A DNA stretch of 64,000 nt from Cellvibrionales bacterium (lineage in GTDB: Bacteria > Pseudomonadota > Gammaproteobacteria > Pseudomonadales > UBA7434). This document shows positions 13,159 through 42,773 of this stretch, in pieces. The notes beneath the pieces are model-generated. The model ran no database searches and was not told the origin of the DNA. It was given only the letters and a program-made list of their open reading frames with translations. A program made the position numbers and the translations under genes. Numbering within the stretch: position 1 is the stretch's first letter; each line of letters begins with the position of its first letter. The stretch lies in contig JBGTQK010000012.1 in the NCBI GenBank assembly GCA_041941365.1, positions 13,415-77,414 on the forward strand, read 5' to 3'.

Positions 13159-13584
13159 TTACTGTACACCTATCACTTTGACTGATCCTGAAACAGAGGC
13201 CTTGTCGACATAACCAATTGCATCAGCATTAGCTGCTACAAATTCGACAACAGCTGCATCATTGTCTAACTCTTTTGGCGGGTTAGCTTTACCCGAAAAA
13301 ATCATCATTGACCAATGTGCTTTCATTTTCTTGTCACTTCGACCCAACATGTTTTCCTGAAAAGCCAGCCTTACCGGATTCTGGTCTACCAGATTTACAG
13401 GTGTTACAGAGCCTCCACTTGGGAACGACTTTGATTTTCCCATGTAGATTTTTTTCAATGCACTACCTGCGATATCGGACCCACTATAAGCCGGATTAAC
13501 AATCACTACTGGCTCAGCGTATAACGCCTGGCTAATAACTACCATAAGTAGTGAAGCCGCTGTAAGTAAATATTGTTTAAACAT
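13159..13584 (-). CDS. Small exported PstS-like (phosphate ABC substrate-binding-like) protein
   Basis: Signal peptide; VVIVNP, KKIYMGK, WSMMIFSGKANPP and AIGYV motifs. Confidence 0.75.
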   Translation of the reverse strand: MFKQYLLTAASLLMVVISQALYAEPVVIVNPAYSGSDIAGSALKKIYMGKSKSFPSGGSVTPVNLVDQNPVRLAFQENMLGRSDKKMKAHWSMMIFSGKANPPKELDNDAAVVEFVAANADAIGYVDKASVSGSVKVIGVQ

Positions 13585-28578: not shown

Positions 28579-31500
28579 CTACTTAACAAATAGTGTGGTC
28601 ATCTCGGGCGTGTTTGATCCTGTTTTATAAATCCAACCGGTGCGAACAGTTCCGCTACCTGCGGGACCGGTAACAGGAATATCTACTGTAAATCTAGAAC
28701 CGTATTGATCGACCTTACCTGCTACAGCAGGATTATTCTTAACTCCACTCTGAAGCTGCTTAAGTAAATCATCTGCGTTAGATTTATTAAACCCTAGTGC
28801 AGACTCGAAAACCTTAGCTTTATTGCCACCAACAGGGTGATTGGGGTTAAGTGCATATTCTGTAAGTTTACGAGGATCAATCTTAGCTTTGTTTGCCCCA
28901 CTCAATACTCCCTTTGCAACATCATCAATAGCACTTACACCTACAGAAGATGCGCCTTTGAGTCCATTATACCCCCATTTTGCCAAATCATATATACTCT
29001 TTAACCCTCCTCCCACTGCTCCGAGCGCAACTTTAGCCGCTTGATTAAAACCGCTTCCATTTGATAGGTTAATCATTGTATCTGATTCTGGAAACGGCAA
29101 GTTAAAATCATTAGGATCAAAACCCGCATTGTCATAGTAAGAGGGCTGGAATAAATCTAACGTTGTTGAACCTGCATCAACACCGGATATAATATTTTTA
29201 AGCGATGTTCCAAAGGGGTCAATATTATTTACCGGGTTATTCGCTACATACGCATAACGATTAACGCCATCTATAAAACCTAACGGGTCTCTTGAGTTAA
29301 ACCGCCCTGTTTTGGGATTATACACTCTTGCCCTGTAGTGCATTAAACCATTGGGATCATGCTCCCTACCCGTAAAGCCATACTGTTTAATCGCCTGCCC
29401 ACTAATTTGGTTAACGTTACCAAAGGCATCGTACTGTTGCGTACCGGTAACTGTCCCGCTAAATAAATCAGTTTGTATAACGGCACTATTTCTATAATCC
29501 TGATGATAAACACTTTGTGTATTAAAATCGGCTGAATAACGTATTAACGGTTCGTCAATTCCTCCACCATTAATAAAGATAGATTCCAGTACGTTTGTGA
29601 CAAGACCATTGTTGGTAAATACAATATCTTCACCCACATAGGAATAGATATTACCGAAGTCATCTGAGTTTAAGGTTGGACTCCATGAGCTTCCACTCCA
29701 ATTAACTTGATACGTTGATGTTCGCTTAAATCGCCGTCCAGCATGATCATACGTCATTTGCTCATTGTATTGACGCAAACTACTGTTTGCCTGCCCTGAT
29801 AAAAAGAACGAGGAATTCAGATAGTTACTTCCATCCGCTGTAAAGGTTTGGCGCAAAGCAGGTAAACCATCATTATAATGAACAGTTAGAGCATAATCCC
29901 TTAAATCACATTGAGTCGCAATTGTATTACTGCTTGTGACACTTGCGGCTGAACTGCCCACACAACTTCTTAACGCTTCACCATCTGGTGTATATTGGTA
30001 ATGCGCTTTGGCGGTACCCGAGGCATTATTCGCGCGTATCGTTGTTAGTTGATGCGCGTCATCATATTGATAATAATCAACAACACCATCAAAATGATTG
30101 TGCGTAATACGATTACCAAACGCATCATAAGCCCATGTTTGTGATTGACTACCCAATGTCTCACCCGTTAAACGCGAGAGATTGTCGTACGTGTAACTGT
30201 ATTGTGTGTTAGCGCCATTAAGGTTTTCATCAATCGAATCAACACGCCCCAAGTTGTCATAAGTGAGGACTTGTTCAAACAAGGTATTATTTGTCGCATT
30301 CTCAATTAAAATACTGGCAATGCGATTATCATTGTAATGTGTATAACGCTGCTTGATTCCGCCAGGCAGATGCTTTTCCGTTAACCGACCGCCATCATCA
30401 TAGACATAATTAATACTATCAGTATCGAATGTGGTAATCGTTTGCAGTCGACCCGTATTATCATATCGGTAGTCAACGTCCTGGTAGAGCGCACCCGCGC
30501 CATTTTTCACCACTAAAGATGTTAAACGTCCACCGGGGCTATAACGCATTGCTTTGGTCGCACCGCCGGAGCTAGTGATTTTAGTGAGACGTTGAGCCTC
30601 ATCATATTCATAATACTCATTATTTGAAACGCCATTATGGCCACCTACCGCGTGAATCAACTGGCCTAAAGGATTTCTTCTGTACTGAAGTTCATCTTTT
30701 TGTCGTAACAAACCGCCATAGTAAAAGCTTCTCACTATCGGCGTTTGAACATAACTATCAGTACCTTGCAGTGTCAGAATTTCTTGATAAACATATTCTT
30801 TTACAGGGTCTCCATATTGGTTATATTCAAACGTCCTTTCATTGTTGAGTGGATCAGTGATAACTAACGGGCGACTCCAATAATCATACACTGTTGTTTC
30901 CTGAACAGTTGTACTGTCATTAGCAACCAACGCCAGCGAATCGGTACTGCCGGCTTTGACTTCAGTAACATTCCCCAACAAATCGTAGGTATAGGTTGTT
31001 ACAGGGCGGCGTACTTGACCGAGCAATGCATCGGTATAACTTTGCTCAACAATCCTAACGGGCCTGTTAAGTGCATCATACGTTACTTCAATTGCATTGC
31101 CTGCATTATCAACGATGAGAGTTACATTGCCGTTGTTATCGTAATCAAAAGTAGTACATCGAGGTGTTGCGCCCTCCAACGCTGGCGGCTCACATTGCTT
31201 TTCAAGACGACCATCTTCTATTGAACCATAATATTGGTACGTTGTAGAAAAACCATTAGGGTCTGTGCGTTTACGAGTTCGACCTATCGCATCAACATCA
31301 CGTTTTGCTTCTCTACCTTCTTCATCAAATGCCGATAATACACGATTCCTTTTATCGTAAGTGAAACCAATCGAATAATTATCAGGATCCGTTATACTTT
31401 CAATATTACCCATCGCGTCATACGTATAAAAACTCGCATTACCGGCAGCATCTAACGTTGTTTTTACTCGGTCAACCTGGTCATATTGCCTAACCGATGA

Positions 31501-34500
31501 GTCATACAAGGTTAAATTTTGATAACCACCGATTGGAACCGGATTATCATCGATAGAACCATCAATGGTTCGATTAACATGAAAGTATTTTCCTACTTTA
31601 GTAACACTTAAACTATTTCCCGTTGGGTTATTATTTTCATCATACGTATAATCCCGAACATACCCCAGTGAATCACTCGCTCTAACGATTCTATCTAGCT
31701 CATCATAGCTGAATAGGGTACGCTCAAAACGCCCATTGATCCCTTGTTCCACTCTGCCTAGCTCATCATAGATAACATCCTGACTATCACATCCATAATC
31801 AGTTCTGTCTTTATCCCTAAACCCACATCTCATCTCTCTATCAGGATAAAGTTGATTAGGATCAAATATTCTCCTAACGACAAATCCTTGCTCTGTAGCT
31901 ATATTTTCAACAAATTTTGTATTTTTTAAGTTACCCACTGAGTCGTAAATATTTTTAGTCCAGGAAAGTATTTGCCCATCGACCGGATTATACGTTTCTG
32001 GAGTTATTGATACGCCGATTCCACTTTTAAGAATAATCGTGTCGGTCAGGTTGCCATTTGAATCATATTGACGTAACTGATAATTGCCATTCGCATCCTT
32101 GATTTTTCCCGGTTGCTCAAAGTCCGTAAAATGACTATAAGTGATTGTACTGCCCGAAGGATTTGTCTGACTTATTACTGTTCCTTCATTGTTATAGCTG
32201 TATTCCGTTCTTAACCCTACTTCATCAACCATTGCCGTTCTTAGATAAGGATCGTCAGGGTCATTGTATTCATACGTTGAAATACTCCCCTCTTCATTGA
32301 TCATTTCGACCGTATTACCAAGCTCATCAAAAAAGTATTGCACTTTATTGCCGCGTGAATCCGTCACAATGGTTTCACGCCTGAAGTCATTGTATTCAAA
32401 TATGAAGGTTTCGTTAGCATCATTGGTATGACGGAAAACCCTGCCATCGATATAGTATTCAAAGCGGATGCCATTGCCTTTTGGATGCGTTATCGACTTG
32501 ATTGAATGTGCAATCGTTTCTGCATCGTTATCGGTAAAATACTCATAAATAACGGGGGGTTGATCGCCAGCTACAGCCAATGGGTTTTTAAATTGAACCA
32601 GATCACCATTTCCATCATAAACATATTCAATACGTCTTCCTGACCAATCCTCTATGGCTGTAATACGGTCATTATTGTCATGACTAAATTGGATAAAGCG
32701 AGCTAATGGCGAATTATCCGTTACTTTATCTAAATTCCCATTGACATAACTGAGTGTCAGGCTATTACCGTTTCTGGACTCTATTCGTTTTAAAACAAAT
32801 TTGTCACCAACATCGGATACGTATTGATCACCGGGATTTTCAGGCTCAAAATAATACGCCAAGCCATTTTTCTCTGTAATTTTAAATTCAATAGCCGATA
32901 ATCGTTCAACCGTATAATATTGCCCCTGTGGCGCCGTGAATGTTGAGCCAGTTGTCGTTCCATTGGCATTAGCACCTGTCACTGTAATCTGGCTTTCTGC
33001 GCCCGTACCATTAACCCAGATTACCGAAGAAACGGTACCATCTTCATCACTGCTATCTTGTGCATCGGGGTTATCATCAGAAAAGACTAATGCATGATTG
33101 AAACTGTGCGTCCAACCGACACCTAATGGCCCCTCTAACTTGGAGCGACTGTTGTAAGAGCGTTGAAATACAAAAGGGAGATCACGAAAAGGAATGGTTA
33201 GATCATCGTTCGTTTCAAAATAGTTACCATTTACAGTATTGACCGGATCACCGGCAAAGGTACTCGCAAACGAATTACCGTATCCAACCCCCGCGCCAAT
33301 TTGTAATATCGCATCATCTGGAACAATAGGCCCTGTAAAGTCAATGGGATCAAGGAAAGAGCTTGTACTTCCTCCGTTATAACCCCAGTCATAAGTAGGA
33401 TTATACGTAGTCATCGAGATGCGATCAGCAACGGTAAAACCACCGTCGTAAGAACCCGAGATAGCAAAGGAAGCCGTACTTGGCTTTGATGCTGTGTACA
33501 CGGTTCCAAGCCAAGTGCCGTATAATATGCGACGATCCGGTATCTTAACGGTAAAACCTTCGTTCAATAAGTCAATTAAAAATTGTCTGAATCCAGCTGG
33601 ATACGCTTGTTCACCAGTAAATCCGTTTTCTGCCAATCGTAACTTGGCCAATTCAGTACCTTGATTAGCGCTTGTAATGGTATAAACACCATAGCCCTGT
33701 TCATTGGCATATTGAATACCACTTGCGGTTGATACTGCATCCATCCTCGCGCCTTTGCGCCAAAGCTCCGATTCATAGGCAGACCCCGTGTATCCGATGG
33801 CAAGGAATTCATTGTCAGTATCACCAATTGAGCGACTCACACCACCAGGTACATCAACATAAAAACCTGTTTCAACAACACCCAGTGGAAGATCCAACAC
33901 TTTTTCGACATAACTTTGACTCCCTGTTAACCCTAGATGAAGACCAGACTCCGCCCTAAAATCCATAGCTTTTGCGAGAACTTTGGGCGCATTACTTAAA
34001 TTAGTCATATAACTTAACGACATGTAATGCAGGAAATTTCCTAACGTTTGATGTATATCTGAGCCGGGGTTGGTTACATTATTAACGGCATTGATTGTTT
34101 TATTGGCTATGTCCGTCAGTGTTTTATTGGTTCCCTGGTGTCCCCAAAACTGTAGACTGTGATAATTAGCCCCAAATAATCCATCAAAACACGAATCATT
34201 GACTAACTGTGTCTCTGTAACCACCGGACAATTCTCTCTATTCGTTTGATTATCTATTGCTTCATCAAGGGTCACTCTAATGTTCAACTTATTGTTTCTT
34301 GAGGTACTTGAGGTTATCACTGTACCCGTATCAACTACCACACCATCAATTAAAAATTGCGGTACTAAACTAACATCCGGCAATGTACCCCCATTAATAC
34401 GCCAATGACTCATTGTATTCTCTGCTGATGCAGTAGCGCCTTTGTAATGGAAGGTGACAGGCTTGAGTAAAATACTACTTGTAGGTACAGTAAAACTTGC

Positions 34501-37476
34501 TCCTGTTGAACCACCCGCAGACGTTATCGCTTCGGCGGTAAAATAATACCGATGGCTATCTGGCAGTATAGAAGTGGTAGACGAACCACTGTTTGTCCAA
34601 TTGGTAAACTGGGCGATGGCGATGGGAATATCATTGGGCAAAATATCGAAATTGACATTGACTTTCGTTGATTGATAGCCCACATCTTTAACGGTTAGAT
34701 TCGGATCAGCAATCAAGTCGTTGACGTTTTCTGCAACGTATTCTTCCGGTGTTTTCTTTTTATAACCCGATAAATAATCATCGATATCAAAGTCATAGCT
34801 CGGTGCCGTGACATTTGTAAATTGACGGTTTTCAAAACTGACATCCAAAGGTATCCAACGGTGCCCCACTTGATCAAAACCACTACCGTTATAATGGGAA
34901 TACGGTACACAGGCTTCTACCCACACATGCGAGAATTGTAAATAACCCTCGCCACCCCAACCAACATCCGGGTTTTCACCAGAACCCAGTAACTGCGCAG
35001 CATCCTCTGCTGACTCAACCTGTAACCATTTCAAAATGCGGTGATTGGGGTCATCTAAAGTACGAGTGAATACTATGCCTCGTACGTAACGCGCCGGGAT
35101 ACCTGAATCACGAAGTAGCGCTATCGTAAGAGAAGCTTGATCTGTGGAGCCACCTGATCCCGTTTTTAACGTTCCGACGGCACCCTTTAAAGCGCCGTAA
35201 GTAGGCTGATAGTGAATTTCGTTAGATACATAATTAAATATATTTCTAACATCATAGCCGAGTGCTTTTGCTTTATCCTGAATCTCTTGAGAAATGATGA
35301 TTTCCTGATTATCAGCCTCAAGGTCTGCCTGTGCATAGTTACAGTTTTGTGCATCTGGCAATGTCGCCTGTGAACTGGCAATAAGTACGCCATCCTTTGA
35401 AAACGCTAGTGGCTCATGTCCGTTCATTGCTAACGATGTTCTTGCAAACACCTTTTTATTGTGTTCTGCATAACCTGGCAGATTATAATGATGATTGATT
35501 TCGGGTGGCTTATCTAAAAACTTTCCTTTTTTCTGACTTTTTATGATAGTTGGCGAATAACCGCCTCGATTGATCGGGGGTTTTAATCCATCCACTACTT
35601 TTTTTAATTCGATAAAGGCATCATAGGATTGCGTCCCTTTGTCATTGATTAGGTTACTAATCATTTCAGCCAGGTTTGCAATGGCTTGATCTTTTGCTTT
35701 TATTTTATCCTCTGAAAGATGAAGCTTTATATCTTTGTTATAACGCCTTAATTTTTCACCCGTTAACTCTTTATTTAAAAGATCATTTAGATTTAATAGT
35801 CTTGTTAGGTTTGTCTGCAAGAACATTTTCTTGGCTTCCAGCGAAAAATCATCATTCATCGACTTTGCAATTGAATGAATTTCCTCCTGAATGAGCCTTA
35901 ATGTATCATCACGTTTTGCAGGGTGTTCAATTTGGCTATCTTTAATGGCATTAAGCACATGATCAGGCAGTGGCGTGGCCGCTTTTAAGATACCTGGATA
36001 GCCTGCACTTAAAGAAAATAAAACCGTTACTAGCAATAAACTCACGTATGATTTAACATTTTTCTTGAGCTGAGTAAAAATCGTCATAATGAATAGACCC
36101 AATAGCATAAGGAATGGAAGTGGCATTGTTGGAATCGTAATGCCTGGATCACCCGTAACAACCAGTTTGGCATTGCGCGACTCTTCAACGTCATCTGAAT
36201 AAATCACCGTATAGAAAAAATTAAATGCGCCTCTGATGTAGGGTAAACCGCTAATAAGGCCGCTTGTTTCATCAACCGATACACCTTCCGGTAAGCCTGA
36301 GCTAACCTCAAACCTGTCAATCGCTACCGCGCGAGAACCTTCCAGATAATCGTTGATAGACACTAACGTTCTACCCATGTTGTCTATTGTTTCTGACGTA
36401 TGATAGCCAGCAATACTGTCACCTATCTGGCCATCAATCAAGGTTGCTGCATCGGGGTATTGTGGATTGGTGCCTGTTATCAGTTCGACATTATCCGGTA
36501 TACCATCGGTATCTGAATCTAACAATACTGTTTGTGTAATTGCTTCCAGCACAAAAGCCGTCGTTAACGGATCATTCACAAAACTACCGTTTAGCGGGTC
36601 TTGCTTTGACACCAGAAAATCTTCAGCATCACTGACAACTGCCTGCACTGCGGATGAATTTGCCGTTGTGTTACCGGCACTCTGCGCGGCCTTGATCGCT
36701 GATAGTACCAGCGCGGTTTCATAGATTTCGCCATTGGATGCGGTTGATTCTTCATTAAAACCACCATCATTTTTTTTATTAGCGCTTGCAATGATCCAGT
36801 TAATCCCTTCTGTGATATCCGTTTGCGAACCTATACCTTGCTGGCGTAATCGACTTAATGCTCGAGTAGCAAATGCGGTCGGTATCAATTCCGAATTTAA
36901 TGATATTCCCGCCGCTACGATGCCAGGATAGGGCCATCCGTTATCGGTATTTTGGTAAAGCTGCACCAATACCGCTTGTGTATACAGTGCATCGGCATTC
37001 GATTGATCCGACAAAAACCACGCATCGATGGCCAGTGATGTCACTTGAATATTCGGTTGATAGCCTGGGTATGTCCCCCATACCGCAGAGTTATTTATTT
37101 CGTGCAGTGTGGAATTCTTATGATCACTTAATTCTGATAGCTTTTCTTCTACATCATAACCAAACAGCCCTAACGTACCGGCTTGCTCCGCAAGATGCAC
37201 CGTGTTGTTAGCATGGGTATTGGCCAACCACCCTAAACCTACTTCAATGGAAATCCCTTTCGATATACCTGCATTGTGAAAGGCTTTCAATACAGTCGCT
37301 GTTGCCGATATTTTAGAGTACCCCGATGGCCAATAACCATTAGCGTTTTGCGAAGTAAATAAATAGGCCAACCCATTTTCTCGAAGATTATCTATTTCAG
37401 TTTGTGTTGCTGATATAGCAGTGTTAACCGTTAAGATTGAAGTTATTACTGCAAAAACAATAGATTTGATTTTCAT
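28579..37476 (-). CDS. Giant Rhs/YD-repeat polymorphic toxin: prenyltransferase-like repeats, Ig-like domain, internal TM pair, transglutaminase-like domain, DUF6531, Rhs core, DUF6883-like C-terminal toxin
   Basis: Signal peptide; LxxxQxxxGxW-type repeats; DSDTDGIPD; GLPEGVSVDETSGLISG; ALLRDSGIPARYV..HVWVE..WIPLD; GDPVNTVNGN..RSYNS..LGVGWTH; YD repeats; RDPLG...NNPVNNIDPFG; CT KIDPRKLTEYALNPNHPVGGNKAKVF. Confidence 0.9.
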   Translation of the reverse strand: MKIKSIVFAVITSILTVNTAISATQTEIDNLRENGLAYLFTSQNANGYWPSGYSKISATATVLKAFHNAGISKGISIEVGLGWLANTHANNTVHLAEQAGTLGLFGYDVEEKLSELSDHKNSTLHEINNSAVWGTYPGYQPNIQVTSLAIDAWFLSDQSNADALYTQAVLVQLYQNTDNGWPYPGIVAAGISLNSELIPTAFATRALSRLRQQGIGSQTDITEGINWIIASANKKNDGGFNEESTASNGEIYETALVLSAIKAAQSAGNTTANSSAVQAVVSDAEDFLVSKQDPLNGSFVNDPLTTAFVLEAITQTVLLDSDTDGIPDNVELITGTNPQYPDAATLIDGQIGDSIAGYHTSETIDNMGRTLVSINDYLEGSRAVAIDRFEVSSGLPEGVSVDETSGLISGLPYIRGAFNFFYTVIYSDDVEESRNAKLVVTGDPGITIPTMPLPFLMLLGLFIMTIFTQLKKNVKSYVSLLLVTVLFSLSAGYPGILKAATPLPDHVLNAIKDSQIEHPAKRDDTLRLIQEEIHSIAKSMNDDFSLEAKKMFLQTNLTRLLNLNDLLNKELTGEKLRRYNKDIKLHLSEDKIKAKDQAIANLAEMISNLINDKGTQSYDAFIELKKVVDGLKPPINRGGYSPTIIKSQKKGKFLDKPPEINHHYNLPGYAEHNKKVFARTSLAMNGHEPLAFSKDGVLIASSQATLPDAQNCNYAQADLEADNQEIIISQEIQDKAKALGYDVRNIFNYVSNEIHYQPTYGALKGAVGTLKTGSGGSTDQASLTIALLRDSGIPARYVRGIVFTRTLDDPNHRILKWLQVESAEDAAQLLGSGENPDVGWGGEGYLQFSHVWVEACVPYSHYNGSGFDQVGHRWIPLDVSFENRQFTNVTAPSYDFDIDDYLSGYKKKTPEEYVAENVNDLIADPNLTVKDVGYQSTKVNVNFDILPNDIPIAIAQFTNWTNSGSSTTSILPDSHRYYFTAEAITSAGGSTGASFTVPTSSILLKPVTFHYKGATASAENTMSHWRINGGTLPDVSLVPQFLIDGVVVDTGTVITSSTSRNNKLNIRVTLDEAIDNQTNRENCPVVTETQLVNDSCFDGLFGANYHSLQFWGHQGTNKTLTDIANKTINAVNNVTNPGSDIHQTLGNFLHYMSLSYMTNLSNAPKVLAKAMDFRAESGLHLGLTGSQSYVEKVLDLPLGVVETGFYVDVPGGVSRSIGDTDNEFLAIGYTGSAYESELWRKGARMDAVSTASGIQYANEQGYGVYTITSANQGTELAKLRLAENGFTGEQAYPAGFRQFLIDLLNEGFTVKIPDRRILYGTWLGTVYTASKPSTASFAISGSYDGGFTVADRISMTTYNPTYDWGYNGGSTSSFLDPIDFTGPIVPDDAILQIGAGVGYGNSFASTFAGDPVNTVNGNYFETNDDLTIPFRDLPFVFQRSYNSRSKLEGPLGVGWTHSFNHALVFSDDNPDAQDSSDEDGTVSSVIWVNGTGAESQITVTGANANGTTTGSTFTAPQGQYYTVERLSAIEFKITEKNGLAYYFEPENPGDQYVSDVGDKFVLKRIESRNGNSLTLSYVNGNLDKVTDNSPLARFIQFSHDNNDRITAIEDWSGRRIEYVYDGNGDLVQFKNPLAVAGDQPPVIYEYFTDNDAETIAHSIKSITHPKGNGIRFEYYIDGRVFRHTNDANETFIFEYNDFRRETIVTDSRGNKVQYFFDELGNTVEMINEEGSISTYEYNDPDDPYLRTAMVDEVGLRTEYSYNNEGTVISQTNPSGSTITYSHFTDFEQPGKIKDANGNYQLRQYDSNGNLTDTIILKSGIGVSITPETYNPVDGQILSWTKNIYDSVGNLKNTKFVENIATEQGFVVRRIFDPNQLYPDREMRCGFRDKDRTDYGCDSQDVIYDELGRVEQGINGRFERTLFSYDELDRIVRASDSLGYVRDYTYDENNNPTGNSLSVTKVGKYFHVNRTIDGSIDDNPVPIGGYQNLTLYDSSVRQYDQVDRVKTTLDAAGNASFYTYDAMGNIESITDPDNYSIGFTYDKRNRVLSAFDEEGREAKRDVDAIGRTRKRTDPNGFSTTYQYYGSIEDGRLEKQCEPPALEGATPRCTTFDYDNNGNVTLIVDNAGNAIEVTYDALNRPVRIVEQSYTDALLGQVRRPVTTYTYDLLGNVTEVKAGSTDSLALVANDSTTVQETTVYDYWSRPLVITDPLNNERTFEYNQYGDPVKEYVYQEILTLQGTDSYVQTPIVRSFYYGGLLRQKDELQYRRNPLGQLIHAVGGHNGVSNNEYYEYDEAQRLTKITSSGGATKAMRYSPGGRLTSLVVKNGAGALYQDVDYRYDNTGRLQTITTFDTDSINYVYDDGGRLTEKHLPGGIKQRYTHYNDNRIASILIENATNNTLFEQVLTYDNLGRVDSIDENLNGANTQYSYTYDNLSRLTGETLGSQSQTWAYDAFGNRITHNHFDGVVDYYQYDDAHQLTTIRANNASGTAKAHYQYTPDGEALRSCVGSSAASVTSSNTIATQCDLRDYALTVHYNDGLPALRQTFTADGSNYLNSSFFLSGQANSSLRQYNEQMTYDHAGRRFKRTSTYQVNWSGSSWSPTLNSDDFGNIYSYVGEDIVFTNNGLVTNVLESIFINGGGIDEPLIRYSADFNTQSVYHQDYRNSAVIQTDLFSGTVTGTQQYDAFGNVNQISGQAIKQYGFTGREHDPNGLMHYRARVYNPKTGRFNSRDPLGFIDGVNRYAYVANNPVNNIDPFGTSLKNIISGVDAGSTTLDLFQPSYYDNAGFDPNDFNLPFPESDTMINLSNGSGFNQAAKVALGAVGGGLKSIYDLAKWGYNGLKGASSVGVSAIDDVAKGVLSGANKAKIDPRKLTEYALNPNHPVGGNKAKVFESALGFNKSNADDLLKQLQSGVKNNPAVAGKVDQYGSRFTVDIPVTGPAGSGTVRTGWIYKTGSNTPEMTTLFVK

Positions 37477-37541: not shown

Positions 37542-38192
37542 TTAAAACTCTAATGAGCCCGTTTCTAATAATTGCTCTGGTGAAAATATTGTGTAATTAC
37601 TTATATTGTTAGATTCAAAACTCGCTCTTGAAATCATAAGGTCATCAGGACTTAGTTGAATCCATTTCTTTTTTCCTGACCATAGCTTTGCTTTTACTGC
37701 TTTCTTCGTTATATCTTCACCGAGCAATTCTGCTCCCTTTTCAAGTCGCCACTGCAAATAATCAATAAGCACTATCTTCTCTTCACCCTCTTCATTTTTG
37801 ACAGGCATATAGAGCTGTAAAGCATAAGCAGCCTGTTTTAATGGCAGTGAGATATGCCCACCTAGAGAAACTAAAGCAACTTGACCTTGATGGCTAATCA
37901 TTGGTGTCAGATTAATTTGTAAAGATGAATGGGCCTCAATGACTTCATCATTGAAACCTGACTCATCGGTACATAAAGTCTTTTGTAGATGGGTATCACT
38001 GCATATTTGAAGGCCCTCTAACGACTTTTTCTTATTTGATCTATTGGTTATTTCAACCCAACCGTTCACAAAATTAATACGTTTAATCTTTAATGCACCC
38101 GCCCTTTCCGATGCACTAACCCACGCAGTCCCTGTTAACAAAATAAATAGTGTTAACAAAGAAACCGTGGTTTTATAAAAATAAACTTTCAT
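37542..38192 (-). CDS. Exported protein, lamin-tail-like domain (paralog of 38249-38914)
   Basis: Signal peptide; WVEITN..SLEGLQICS..CT..SGFN..YALQL..YLQW shared with the neighbour. Confidence 0.55.
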   Translation of the reverse strand: MKVYFYKTTVSLLTLFILLTGTAWVSASERAGALKIKRINFVNGWVEITNRSNKKKSLEGLQICSDTHLQKTLCTDESGFNDEVIEAHSSLQINLTPMISHQGQVALVSLGGHISLPLKQAAYALQLYMPVKNEEGEEKIVLIDYLQWRLEKGAELLGEDITKKAVKAKLWSGKKKWIQLSPDDLMISRASFESNNISNYTIFSPEQLLETGSLEF

Positions 38193-38248: not shown

Positions 38249-38914
38249 CTAAAAGCAATTAAAGAAAATAACACTAGCGAAAAGTGTCATAGGGATTGTC
38301 GGGATTTCAAAACTACTCACCGCATGAAATGAAGCCAGACTCAGCACGCCCTCTTCAATCCCGTACAAACGCTTGATTGCAACCGTTTCTTCATCAGTAA
38401 CTATCCAATCTGTCGATAGTTGCCACAATCCCGCAATAACTGCGTTATTGCTTTGTTGGTCTGCTGTATTGTTATGAATACCGTCAACACTCCATTGTAT
38501 ATGGTGTGCAAGACTTGCTGGATTGGTTAGAGAAAACGGAGGTTTAAAAAGTTGTAAGCTGTATGACGCTTTTGAGAATGGAGCGGCTAATGCACCGCCC
38601 AAATCAGAAATATTGATTTGATTAGGTTGATCTGATTGATTGTCCAATCTTATTAATTTAATTTCTCCAGGCGCTATGCTTATACCATTAAACCCAGACG
38701 AACCTGTACATTTGTTGATTTCATTGGCGTCACTTGAGCATAGCCTCCATCCATCTAACGATTGTACATTAGCCCCTACATTGATTATTTCTATCATTTT
38801 TCTCGAAAAATCGACTTTATGAAATTGAATATCTTTATAACCGGCTATTACCAATTGCGTTCCTAACAGCAATACCAAGGCTGATAATAACATTTGTAAT
38901 TTCAAATTTTTCAT
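38249..38914 (-). CDS. Exported lamin-tail-like protein with C-terminal IPT-hydrophobic tail
   Basis: Signal peptide; IEIIN..SLDGWRLCS..CT..SGFN; ends EIPTIPMTLFASVIFF. Confidence 0.55.
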   Translation of the reverse strand: MKNLKLQMLLSALVLLLGTQLVIAGYKDIQFHKVDFSRKMIEIINVGANVQSLDGWRLCSSDANEINKCTGSSGFNGISIAPGEIKLIRLDNQSDQPNQINISDLGGALAAPFSKASYSLQLFKPPFSLTNPASLAHHIQWSVDGIHNNTADQQSNNAVIAGLWQLSTDWIVTDEETVAIKRLYGIEEGVLSLASFHAVSSFEIPTIPMTLFASVIFFNCF

Positions 38915-39447: not shown

Positions 39448-39888
39448 TTACACCTTAGCTCTAGTTTTATTTCGTAATATCACTAAAACTTTTCGCGCAC
39501 AGTCCTTTTCGCCAAAAGAATCAACGGTAAATCGCACCACATCACCTACTCGCAATACTTCGAATAATGTACACAATACATCACTGCCATGAAAAAAGAT
39601 TTGCTGGCTTAGCTCTTCGCAGTAAATAAACCCAAAGTGTTTGGCTTCATGTAAAAATTTAATCACACCAAAATGCCCTAGCTTTTGTTTAATATCATCG
39701 CCCTGGATTTTCCCTTCGTTAATCAACGCTTCAATGTTGTCGTAGTAAGATTCTCCAGCAACGACTTTGGTAGTTTGTGGCGCTTCGATACCCAACTTAA
39801 CTCTCCCTTCTTTGATGCCAAGCAAGATGATATTAACCTCATCACCAATATAAAATCCCTCGCCCAAGCGGCGTATAAAAGAAACCAT
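39448..39888 (-). CDS. CsrA-like domain fused to a cold-shock domain
   Basis: From ATG 39888: MVSFIRRLGEGFYIGDEVNIILLGIKEGRVKLGIEAP (CsrA-like), then GVIKFLHEAKHFGFI..IFFHGS..LRVGDVVRF..ARKV (CSD RNP1/RNP2). Confidence 0.8.
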   Translation of the reverse strand: MVSFIRRLGEGFYIGDEVNIILLGIKEGRVKLGIEAPQTTKVVAGESYYDNIEALINEGKIQGDDIKQKLGHFGVIKFLHEAKHFGFIYCEELSQQIFFHGSDVLCTLFEVLRVGDVVRFTVDSFGEKDCARKVLVILRNKTRAKV

Positions 39889-39931
39889 ACCATCACCCCA
39901 CACGTTATTTACAATACACTTCATGCCTGCT

Positions 39932-40099
39932 TTATTCGTTATTGCCATACGTTTTCTTCTCAACACGTTGAGACATTCTGCTCCGCTTACTCTGTAAAAC
40001 CAAAAAAACAAACAGTGTTATGATCGATATGACTACAATGGCTATAAATAGAAAAATCACGATTTTTATTGATAAACCAATACCAACACTCTCTCCCAT
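39932..40099 (-). CDS. Small single-pass membrane protein (55 aa)
   Basis: Not in the ORF track. RBS AAGGAG, then MGESVGIGLSIKIVIFLFIAIVVISIITLFVFLVLQSKRSRMSQRVEKKTYGNNE*. Confidence 0.5.
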   Translation of the reverse strand: MGESVGIGLSIKIVIFLFIAIVVISIITLFVFLVLQSKRSRMSQRVEKKTYGNNE

Positions 40100-40353: not shown

Positions 40354-40807
40354 TTAGCTTATCCTTTTGATGCCAGGTTTTTCTTGGGGGGCTTTTCTTT
40401 ATTCACCGCATAGATCGCTTTGTTTCTATGCACATCCTTTACATAAATACTTTGCTCTTCACCTTTTGCGTTGCGAATAACGATACAACTATATTTTTCC
40501 AAAACCAGAACCTGTTCTTATTTATCCATTCTTCCTACTTTACCCATTAGCCGATCCCATTTTTTGTCTAACGAATCTAACGAAAAAATCCAGATGTTTA
40601 AAAACACTATTTCATACTGAAAAAATGCTGTCAATAGATTATTTATTATTCGATATATATTTTTTCATCTCGAAATCGCTAAACTTTTTTTTCGCTTTAT
40701 ATAAATATTTCTTACTATTCCCTCGTGTATCGCATTAGCGCAATACCACAAATACATGTCTTGCGAAATCGACAGGTTTATTTTTTATTCAATACGAGGA
40801 AAATACT

Positions 40808-41905
40808 ATGTTATACAGTAAAGGTAATAAAGGTGAGTTAAAGGCAAAGATCATAGCTGCTGGTGCAGCCATTCCTAAAGATTCGGTTGTAACCGATGAT
40901 TTATTAAAGTATGTAGACAGTGAAAAACGGTTTGGCATTCCTCATGATTTTATATCAACAAAGCTGGGTATTATAGAAAAACGTATTGCTGACGCTGCAA
41001 CAAAACCTTCAGACTTAGCCATAGAAGCATCTATCAATGCACTAAAACAAAGTAGTACCGATCCTAAAGATATAGATGTCATTATATTTTGTGGTGTTCA
41101 TCGAGATTGGATAGAGCCCTCAACCGCACATAGAGTACAACATGTTTTAGGTGCAAAAAATGCTTATTGTTTTGATATTAGTAACGCCTGCCACGGTATG
41201 ATGAACGGCCTCGATTACGCTAATCAGAAAATCAGGAATGGCGAAATAGAAACCGCTTTGATCTGCACTGGGGAAAAGCTATCTGAAGTTAATCCAGCTC
41301 TCTACGAAAAACTCAAAAACCCTGCTATTAGTATGGAAGAATTTAAACTAACAATCGGGGCTTTGACAGTAGGAGATGCAGGTGGCGCATTGATCATTCA
41401 AGGCTTATCAAAAAAAACAGGCATAACACACATGCAGTTTTATTCCGCTGGGGAATATACTGATTTATGTTCTTTGAATATAACGAATAAAGGTTATGAA
41501 TTTAAAATGGATATGTCAGGTATTTGTCGTGAGGTTATCGACTACGTAAAAATTAAGTTACGCTATGGGTACAAACTCTCAGGATGGTCTGCAAATGATA
41601 TTGACCACTTTATTTGTCATCAAGTTGGAAAGTTACCTCATGCACTTTCATGTCGAGCAAACGGCATAGATATTAACAAATCTGCTTGTACCTATCCGTT
41701 TTTAGGAAACATCACTACAGCAACAATACCTGTAGCAATGTCATTGACGCATTTTAAAAGTGGGGATAAAATGTTAATACAGTCTTCAGGATCAGGGATA
41801 TGTATAGGAAGCACAGGATTGCTATGCTCATATGACAATAACATTAATACTTTACATTCTACCCTCAATTCTCGCGCTTCTTTTAAAGCTGTTAATTGTG
41901 CTTAA
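40808..41905 (+). CDS. OleA/FabH-like condensing enzyme (KS III family)
   Basis: RDWIEPSTA, CFDISNAC (catalytic Cys), TVGDAGGA, HQVG (His), LGNITTATIP (Asn); RBS GAGGA. Confidence 0.88.
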   Translation: MLYSKGNKGELKAKIIAAGAAIPKDSVVTDDLLKYVDSEKRFGIPHDFISTKLGIIEKRIADAATKPSDLAIEASINALKQSSTDPKDIDVIIFCGVHRDWIEPSTAHRVQHVLGAKNAYCFDISNACHGMMNGLDYANQKIRNGEIETALICTGEKLSEVNPALYEKLKNPAISMEEFKLTIGALTVGDAGGALIIQGLSKKTGITHMQFYSAGEYTDLCSLNITNKGYEFKMDMSGICREVIDYVKIKLRYGYKLSGWSANDIDHFICHQVGKLPHALSCRANGIDINKSACTYPFLGNITTATIPVAMSLTHFKSGDKMLIQSSGSGICIGSTGLLCSYDNNINTLHSTLNSRASFKAVNCA

Positions 41906-42773
41906 TGTTAATTTTGATCGATTAATTAAAAACAAATTGATAATCACGTTCTTTGTTTCTTTGTTTTTAGTTAACACCTTGGAGCTTGCAGGGTTTTTGG
42001 TTTTAAACGCAGGCTCCGAACTCTCTTTAGTTGCACTAAAATTATATTATATTTTTTTAGGTTATGTTACTGGCTCTTTCCTTTTAATCAGTGCATCCAT
42101 GTCAATATTGCCCGAAAGAGTATTTAGAATACTTACCACTTTTGTTATGTCTTCATACATTATTCTGGTTTATTTTGTGTTCTGCACACCCTACCTTATT
42201 ATTGATACAATAAAAATGGGATACACAATCACGCGAGTTCCTGGCGAGTGTTATCACTTAATCACTGTGTTTGGATTCTCTACTCTAATTGGTGCTGTAT
42301 TTTTTTTGATTAAGGGAACAAAAAATAAAAATACTCTTGAAGCCAGTCGTTGTAATTTTATGTTAATCGCTACGACTCCGTTCTTTCTTACAATTATTGT
42401 TACTACTTTAGTCATGTTGTTATCTGAAAAAATAAATCTTGCTGGATTTGTATCATTAGCAACAACCTTTATGCTACTTGCACTTATTTTTATTGAATCA
42501 AAATATCATTTATTTAGAGTCAATTCGCGTTTACCTTGGACAAAAGAATATAAAATTAACCGTAAACTAACAAAAATAGTTAATATACATTCATTAACTT
42601 ATAACAACAGAGTTAATTTAGTAGAAATCGTTACTGAAATGGAAAAAGCCTATATGGATTTGGCTCTATATCACTCAAAAGGAGTCCAAGCAGATGCGTC
42701 TAAATTATTAACACTTACACAAAGCACTTTTAGTCGGAAAAAATTAAAATATTTTAAAGCTGAAGAAAGTTAA
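41832..42773 (+). CDS. Membrane one-component regulator: HisKA_7TM-like sensor plus Fis-type HTH
   Basis: About 7 hydrophobic helices with GYTITRVPGECY loop; C-terminus EMEKAYMDLALYHSKGVQADASKLLTLTQSTFSRK matches the Fis HTH_8 pattern. Confidence 0.7.
   Translation: MTITLILYILPSILALLLKLLIVLNVNFDRLIKNKLIITFFVSLFLVNTLELAGFLVLNAGSELSLVALKLYYIFLGYVTGSFLLISASMSILPERVFRILTTFVMSSYIILVYFVFCTPYLIIDTIKMGYTITRVPGECYHLITVFGFSTLIGAVFFLIKGTKNKNTLEASRCNFMLIATTPFFLTIIVTTLVMLLSEKINLAGFVSLATTFMLLALIFIESKYHLFRVNSRLPWTKEYKINRKLTKIVNIHSLTYNNRVNLVEIVTEMEKAYMDLALYHSKGVQADASKLLTLTQSTFSRKKLKYFKAEES

Follow-up and report, generated by a model that had tools for sequence, protein, structure and literature searches.

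Does a condensing enzyme that is encoded directly before a membrane-bound regulator make the compound that this regulator reads? The question is raised by two overlapping genes in a stretch of 64,000 nucleotides (nt; hereafter the window) from a Cellvibrionales bacterium (Gammaproteobacteria; Pseudomonadales; UBA7434), which corresponds to positions 13,415 to 77,414 of contig JBGTQK010000012.1 (assembly GCA_041941365.1). The first gene (40808..41905, plus strand, 365 amino acids, aa) encodes an OleA-like, thiolase-fold condensing enzyme of the ketoacyl synthase III type (KAS III; hereafter the KAS). The second (41832..42773, plus strand, 313 aa) encodes a membrane one-component regulator in which seven transmembrane (7TM) helices are joined to a helix-turn-helix (HTH) domain of the HTH_8 type. 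The first-pass annotation had described these genes as a two-gene unit with a 74-nt overlap, isolated from oleBCD, acyl carrier protein (ACP) and fab genes. Both open reading frames (ORFs) were recovered, sharing the dual-coding stretch 41832..41905 on the plus strand, where the tail of the KAS is read in one frame and the first transmembrane helix (TM1) of the regulator in another, and no ole-, fab- or ACP-like gene was found near the pair. The pairing is conserved and the C-terminus of the regulator is a Fis-type HTH, so that two of the conditions named in the first-pass annotation as refuting do not hold, and a functional enzyme-regulator module is well supported. That the KAS makes a hydrophobic condensation product, which the membrane sensor reads to control transcription, is the proposal that we favour, at about even odds.

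The main evidence comes from the conservation of the pair. In a KAS-centred set, 80 loci were kept of 208 relatives, originating from Pseudomonadales, Pseudohongiella, Exilibacterium, Pseudomaricurvus, Marinomonas, Arenicellales, Sulfurifustaceae, 'Muproteobacteria' and Acidiferrobacterales records. A 7TM-HTH gene follows immediately downstream, on the KAS strand, at 74 of these 80 loci, which is 74 of the 75 where downstream DNA exists; five loci (L090, L102, L105, L112 and L123) have none or less than 420 nt of it. Full-length matches to the regulator were obtained in 3 of the 61 genomes of a set of relatives (the window genome, that of a congener and one from another family) and in 6 of the 401 genomes of a class-wide sample. 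At 11 of the 13 regulator loci from these two collections a KAS is adjacent, in one case convergently. Moreover, when 400 genomes of the class sample were searched for the KAS subfamily (E-value up to 1e-70), six had it, and these are the identical six that hold the regulator. Co-occurrence is near-obligate, and the pairing on which the first-pass annotation relied is therefore a conserved one. The loci are phylogenetically related, so their counts overstate independence.

At the 74 loci, the two genes overlap in 8 cases, are 0-100 nt apart in 36 and lie further apart in 30. Apart from the pair, no gene is conserved around the 80 KAS loci, and hence one enzyme must suffice. In 60 short-form pairs the two proteins co-diverge, their identities being correlated with a Pearson coefficient of 0.95, and the regulator diverges faster (mean identity 29% vs. 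48% for the KAS).

Several genomes carry two or three pairs, or extra receptors lacking a KAS. The window genome itself holds a second pair on contig C9, with 60% (KAS) and 38% (regulator) identity to the window pair and an equally overlapping layout; the membrane part and the HTH of its two regulators are equally diverged (35% identity each). The C9 pair is the counterpart of the pair of the congener (65%/47%), the window pair being a more diverged copy. A short-chain dehydrogenase gene (L009 11988-12737, plus strand) follows the C9 pair; neither the window locus nor the congener has it. Additionally, a third KAS is located at the end of contig C1 (L010 10569-11803; 42% identity, with the C-terminal tail typical of the genus). 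It is followed by a 17-codon ORF resembling the N-terminus of the 7TM regulator and then by a stop, and the contig ends 83 nt past the KAS stop codon; no tRNA was called by a scan of this contig end. It is possibly a solo synthase whose partner is vestigial. At three other loci, two or three regulator paralogues stand in tandem beside one KAS (L064 3-1914, L121 6873-7781 and L125 999-4326).

The enzyme was matched by the Pfam families ACP_syn_III, ACP_syn_III_C and Thiolase_N. Its closest solved structures are Xanthomonas OleA chains (3ROW and others, E-value 3e-33), and weaker relatives were found in FabH (best E-value 2.4e-24) and PqsD (6e-17). The Glu of its EPSTA motif, the Cys of NACHG, the His of HQVG and the Asn of GNIT align onto the OleA residues, and none of the four (E103, C128, H271 and N301) varies among 34 KAS subfamily sequences, so the Cys-His-Asn triad and the OleA-type Glu that had been read from this protein are indeed in place. 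The ordinary FabH-like gene of the window genome, on contig C16, has a Phe at the Glu position. It also lacks an insertion of ~16 residues present in the KAS subfamily, a stretch through which OleA aligns. The window KAS bears a genus-specific C-terminal tail of ~30 aa, which is kept among the genus copies. A survey of Pfam domains and neighbours detected no oleB, oleC or oleD around the window KAS or as a conserved gene at the 80 related loci. In one report (PMC4578411), E117 of OleA and E105 of PpyS are given as the base for head-to-head condensation, and loss of the PpyS Glu as abolishing photopyrone synthesis.

The single Pfam match of the window regulator was HTH_8 (PF02954; residues 268-303, E-value 5e-4, 20.2 bits). 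In the family, HTH_8 was found in 39 of 40 aligned members (best E-value 6.3e-15) and HisKA_7TM (PF16927) in 19 of 40 aligned relatives (best E-value 1.9e-9), as well as in the long forms described below; HisKA_7TM gave no match in the window regulator itself at E-values up to 0.1. A profile of the regulator family matched Fis crystal structures with an E-value of 2e-9, profile positions 234-301 falling onto Fis residues 26-94. The tail of the regulator is therefore a whole Fis-like domain, predicted to be cytoplasmic and located at 42543..42767 (plus strand; residues ~238-312, including the HTH). No kinase, receiver or AAA+ domain was found by Pfam in the window regulator. Neither a LuxI-type synthase domain nor a LuxR-type one (autoinducer-binding plus GerE) was found by Pfam in the two proteins.

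The family to which this regulator belongs is largely unannotated. A word-indexed search returned the window regulator alone, and a full HMMER search was needed to recover its relatives: the exhaustive search gave 341 representative clusters at E-values up to 1e-3, of which 135 remained at a limit of 1e-10, and the majority are ~300 aa long and match over the full length. No NCBIfam model spans the whole regulator, and in a protein atlas its clusters go under 'hypothetical protein' or under the names of the two domains. The same atlas yielded, as a lead only, proteins of ~320-360 aa from Bacteroidota, Bacillota and Spirochaetota that combine HisKA_7TM with a LuxR-type (GerE) HTH (scores 0.75-0.79). 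They are possibly sister architectures whose DNA-binding output differs.

The start of the regulator was also considered, since the public gene call (P0001, 291 aa) places it at a GTG at 41898. Three residues with at least 90% conservation across the family, P11, A15 and K19, are encoded upstream of this alternative GTG, which supports the ATG at 41832 and with it the 74-nt overlap. Besides K19, high conservation was observed at N48, E51, Y72, Y73, R135, G138, P183, M195, E222, P235 (invariant), T237 and E239. The window regulator keeps 27 of the 31 positions that are at least 80% conserved in the family.

An AlphaFold2 model of the regulator, obtained with the family alignment as input, was of high confidence (predicted local distance difference test, pLDDT, 92.8; predicted template-modelling score, pTM, 0.87). 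It shows seven transmembrane helices (membrane domain 41832..42497, plus strand, residues 1-222), a conserved beta-hairpin between TM4 and TM5 (42198-42242, plus strand, residues 123-137), two short helices and an HTH at residues 263-312, the helices of the C-terminal domain spanning 263-281, 286-292 and 297-312. Pfam, the family profile and this model thus agree with the earlier description of the partner as a 7TM sensor joined to a Fis HTH without kinase, receiver or AAA+ domain, and its C-terminus is a Fis-type HTH. As the HTH has to lie in the cytoplasm, the N-terminus and the hairpin should face outward. The mean loop charges of the family fit this N-out/C-in topology moderately, and the conserved polar residues N48, E51, Y72, Y73 and R135 would then lie in the outer half of the bundle and in the hairpin.

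The fold of the membrane domain was compared with solved structures. A wide search with VIA-align (residues 1-227) retrieved bundles of the G-protein-coupled receptor (GPCR) type, with Z-scores of 13.9-16.4, of which ~14 can be reached by helical bundles through arrangement alone, and a root-mean-square deviation of 3.4-4.7 Å over 207-226 residues. All 50 matches listed were GPCR or GPCR-like 7TM bundles, and a second member of the regulator family gave matches of the same kind. On account of what helical bundles reach by arrangement, the modelled 7TM fold is described here as GPCR-like, and homology is not claimed.

More distant KAS loci have longer regulator partners. Forms of ~520-600 aa contain the 7TM part, an alpha/beta domain, a long helix and HTH_8 (pLDDT 79 for the model). 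Forms of ~830-890 aa carry an extra region, in which one representative (P0240) gave a weak Sigma54_activ_2 match (E-value 1.8e-4) between the 7TM part and HTH_8; the others gave mere hints of this domain, and a Walker-A-like stretch in one long form looks degenerate by eye. In the 525-aa and 860-aa forms, Pfam gave the middle domain no name, and its GAF-like look is by eye only; in a Foldseek search with the model of the 527-aa form the matches were taken up by the 7TM part. A word-indexed search for longer fused forms found none, which is weak evidence; long forms were found by the HMMER and locus surveys. Three single-chain fusions unite a 7TM part (HisKA_7TM), a middle domain and a KAS (L116 261-2714, L128 995-3463 and protein P0226; 813-822 aa); in L116 and L128, from Sulfurifustaceae-type records, separate 7TM-HTH_8 genes come next. 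The series of ~860, 525 and 300 aa is read here as putative descent, by domain loss, from a membrane-anchored regulator of the enhancer-binding type.

The DNA upstream of the KAS was also analyzed. In a Pseudohongiella-type clade (L067-L097 and related loci), the palindrome TGTAGGA-N5-TCCTACA, with conserved arms and a free spacer, lies ~150-240 nt upstream of the KAS. With up to one mismatch, 19 sites were counted in the 722 kb of the 74 loci and none for the reversed control: 17 within 400 nt upstream of a KAS, two in the KAS-regulator gap and none elsewhere. In whole chromosomes, one or two sites were found in four of five and none in one; the second sites in two chromosomes (L148 and L150) are near unrelated genes and may be due to chance. 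Another dyad, ATTTCA-N4-TGAAAT, is located ~65 nt downstream of the palindrome and is likewise confined to this clade. The largest further gene clusters around the pair (20-24 loci) also reflect the synteny of one clade, pspF-pspA-pspC-NUDIX-KAS-regulator-purL; in ~20 Pseudohongiella-type loci (L068-L097) the pair stands directly after pspF, pspA, pspC and a NUDIX gene and before purL. In the genus of the window, no palindrome or shared operator was found upstream of the KAS at its three loci, apart from a promoter-like block of ~42 nt.

From these data, a working mechanism can be proposed. The OleA-like thiolase, in the cytoplasm, would join two acyl thioesters from ordinary lipid metabolism by a non-decarboxylative, head-to-head Claisen condensation, using Cys128 and Glu103 as the base. 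A beta-keto acid, a ketone or a molecule of the pyrone type would result, hydrophobic in each case and partitioning into the membrane. There, the polytopic regulator, N-terminus outside and C-terminus inside, would bind this product or a close derivative within its GPCR-like seven-helix bundle, with the conserved periplasmic hairpin as a cap. The change would be relayed through the conserved juxtamembrane segment (P235, T237 and E239) to the Fis-like domain, which would bind DNA as a dimer and regulate its own operon together with lineage-specific neighbours. Such a signal might pass between cells or act only on its producer.

Several observations weigh against this proposal. Adjacency and co-divergence would be seen in any operon inherited as a unit, and they do not by themselves make the product the ligand. 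The pairing has exceptions: one KAS locus with downstream DNA (L132) is a solo KAS, the sole true miss among the 80; two regulator loci (L049 and L052), in one genome with five regulators, have no KAS; and one of the six class-sample genomes (G124) contains a second KAS without a regulator within 1.5 kb. The HTH_8 score of the window regulator is under the 22-bit cut-off of Pfam. The structural likeness to GPCRs is subject to the reservation on Z-scores given above, and the Foldseek matches to GPCRs were weak (best E-value 3e-3, TM-score below 0.5). The palindrome is confined to one clade; a control pattern gave 0-4 matches per strand on whole chromosomes at one mismatch, and in other clades palindromes were not enriched (9 of 52 upstream regions vs. 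5 of 52 coding controls). Finally, the KAS is below the cut-off of every NCBIfam KAS III model. The best of them, NF006720/PRK09258, the model that covers OleA, scored 189.8 bits against a cut-off of 285. Since the scores fall below these curated cut-offs, the chemistry of the KAS is extrapolated.

The main rival to the signal proposal separates the product from the ligand. The regulator would sense another cue, such as the state of the membrane, envelope stress or an exogenous lipid, and the KAS would be the regulated output, making a membrane-modifying or antibiotic lipid that is not the ligand. An enzyme gene followed by the regulator of its pathway is the commonest reason for such adjacency, pyrones from related single enzymes have been reported as antibiotics, the position after the psp genes is a membrane-stress context, and the operator-like palindrome would fit equally well. 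However, the psp synteny is the arrangement of one lineage and not a general one, a stress output would less readily account for several diverged pairs and extra receptors within one genome, and the 7TM-KAS fusions bind sensor to enzyme more tightly than plain regulation needs. This account is possible, although we do not lean towards it. Another view of the enzyme, as a FabH-type primer enzyme that condenses acyl-CoA with malonyl-ACP and, with the regulator, adjusts the acyl chains of membrane lipids, appears unlikely. It would explain the KAS III/FabH-like names given by Pfam and NCBIfam and the triad, which is common to FabH, but the genome has its separate, ordinary FabH, which lacks both the Glu and the OleA-like insertion of the KAS; the score with the FabH model TIGR00747 is far under the cut-off (136.2 vs. 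292.1 bits), and the patchy distribution, in 6 of ~400 class genomes, is unlike that of a core lipid function.

The same fusions, and the overlaps at 8 of 74 loci, which suggest coupled translation, could also be taken to mean that the main role of the 7TM protein is to dock or accept the enzyme or its product at the membrane, for export or hand-off, with DNA binding secondary or vestigial. This is quite improbable in our view, as HTH_8 is kept in nearly all aligned members with its recognition residues conserved, and the long relatives retain a whole regulator-type architecture. Chance adjacency or gene decay, for which it could be said that the window pair is the most diverged copy and that its regulator departs from the family at 4 of the 31 highly conserved positions, is contradicted by the conserved adjacency and by the six shared genomes; both reading frames are intact, the other 27 positions are kept and the pairing recurs across several orders, so that this explanation can practically be dismissed.

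Returning to the proposal that the KAS product is the ligand, a broader version of it may be advanced tentatively, and we consider it rather doubtful as a whole. It would make of the pair a new class of bacterial chemical communication, in which a receptor combining a GPCR fold with a Fis domain reads the membrane-soluble autoinducer of an OleA-like ketosynthase, several orthogonal channels and eavesdropping solo receptors coexist in one genome, and the receptor arose from a sigma-54 activator by stepwise loss of domains.

On the other side of the upstream region, a divergent gene (39448..39891, minus strand; probable start at Met41 of the listed ORF) encodes CsrA and a cold-shock domain (CSD) in one protein (Pfam E-values 2.4e-11 and 4.3e-11, respectively). 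The promoter-like block (40606..40647), conserved at all three loci of the genus, contains on the minus strand what reads as a sigma-70-like promoter (TTGACA, 17 nt, AATAGT) facing this gene. All three loci of the genus have a divergent CsrA-type gene, and a gene of this type also occurs near one distant pair; none stands beside the other 79 KAS-centred loci examined. At the paralogous C9 locus (L009 8657-9054, minus strand) the CsrA and CSD parts are in different frames, as a result of either a frameshift or two genes, and at the locus of the congener (L041 11340-11486, plus strand) the CsrA part alone was matched. The CsrA-CSD gene is possibly a target or partner of the KAS-regulator module. 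Just upstream of it, an ORF of 55 aa (39932-40099, minus strand) with one hydrophobic helix had no Pfam match, and its conservation at the C9 locus is weak (32.5% by tblastx over 40 aa).

Beyond the CsrA-CSD gene, the neighbours on this side are two weakly lamin-tail-like proteins and an Rhs-type protein. The latter (Rhs/YD-repeat, 2965 aa; 28579-37476, minus strand) ends in a DUF6883 domain (E-value 1.9e-26). The two proteins of ~220 aa (37542-38192 and 38249-38914, both on the minus strand), whose genes precede the Rhs gene, have signal-like N-termini and weak lamin-tail-domain matches. No link between the pair and Rhs was found. Downstream of the pair, genes for MerR, IHF-alpha, PheT and PheS follow. 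The GC content is 0.27-0.38 across the pair region vs. 0.40-0.45 in the flanking pheST-ihfA genes.

Marine and sediment Gammaproteobacteria carry the pair widely. Among cultured strains, the two genes were confirmed as adjacent in Marinomonas transparens C1424 (L071 and L096), M. agarivorans QM202 (L086), Exilibacterium tricleocarpae R142 (L057, L064 and L073) and Pseudomaricurvus alkylphenolicus KCTC 32386 (L061 and L062). If the product is the ligand, these bacteria would possess a self-contained, two-gene lipid signalling cassette with an unstudied type of receptor, seven helices wired to DNA. Both the chemistry of the signal and the architecture of the receptor would then be new to bacterial communication, and the module may be useful as a minimal membrane-to-DNA sensor for synthetic biology; the size series of its relatives would then show an enhancer-binding protein stripped to its sensor and HTH. 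Even under the rival account of a regulated output, a family of regulators hitherto without annotation has been defined, and its enzyme partner is clear.

Searches of the full-text literature found no description of the KAS/7TM-HTH pair or of this type of regulator, and a search for HisKA_7TM led to archaeal two-component systems and to nothing on the pair. Among known systems, the enzyme is closest to OleA, the acyl-CoA:acyl-CoA alkyltransferase of olefin synthesis in Xanthomonas campestris (3ROW and 4KTI), with which it shares the thiolase fold, the Cys-His-Asn triad, the EPSTA Glu and the insertion absent from FabH; it differs in having no oleBCD context, in scoring below the PRK09258 cut-off and in being paired with a membrane regulator. 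The PpyS/PluR photopyrone system is similar in that its lipid-like signal is made by one ketosynthase alone, which is derived from FabH and has an essential Glu (PMC4578411). DarB and PqsD, which belong to dialkylresorcinol and quinolone synthesis, are matched weakly by the window KAS. With these three systems the shared logic would be a synthase and a dedicated transcription factor, whereas their receptors are soluble proteins of the LuxR or LysR type and the one considered here has seven helices and a Fis-type domain. As neither protein has a domain of the LuxI/LuxR system, any likeness to it would be functional only.

On the side of the regulator, the HTH_8 tail is of the type found in enhancer-binding proteins such as NtrC and NifA, which the ~860-aa relatives also recall through their weak Sigma54_activ_2 signal, and the window regulator differs from them in having no AAA+ domain. 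ToxR, CadC, TcpP and BcrR are likewise transcription factors that are retained in the membrane and bind DNA directly, but with one to four transmembrane helices and an N-terminal winged-helix or XRE domain, in contrast to the seven helices and C-terminal Fis-type domain described here. A parallel to the proposed circuit may be offered by CqsA/CqsS, LqsA/LqsS and RpfF/RpfC, in which a hydrophobic ketone or fatty-acid signal is perceived by a multi-helix membrane receptor encoded beside the synthase. Those receptors are histidine kinases that feed a phosphorelay, whereas the window sensor, with neither kinase nor receiver, is itself the DNA-binding protein.

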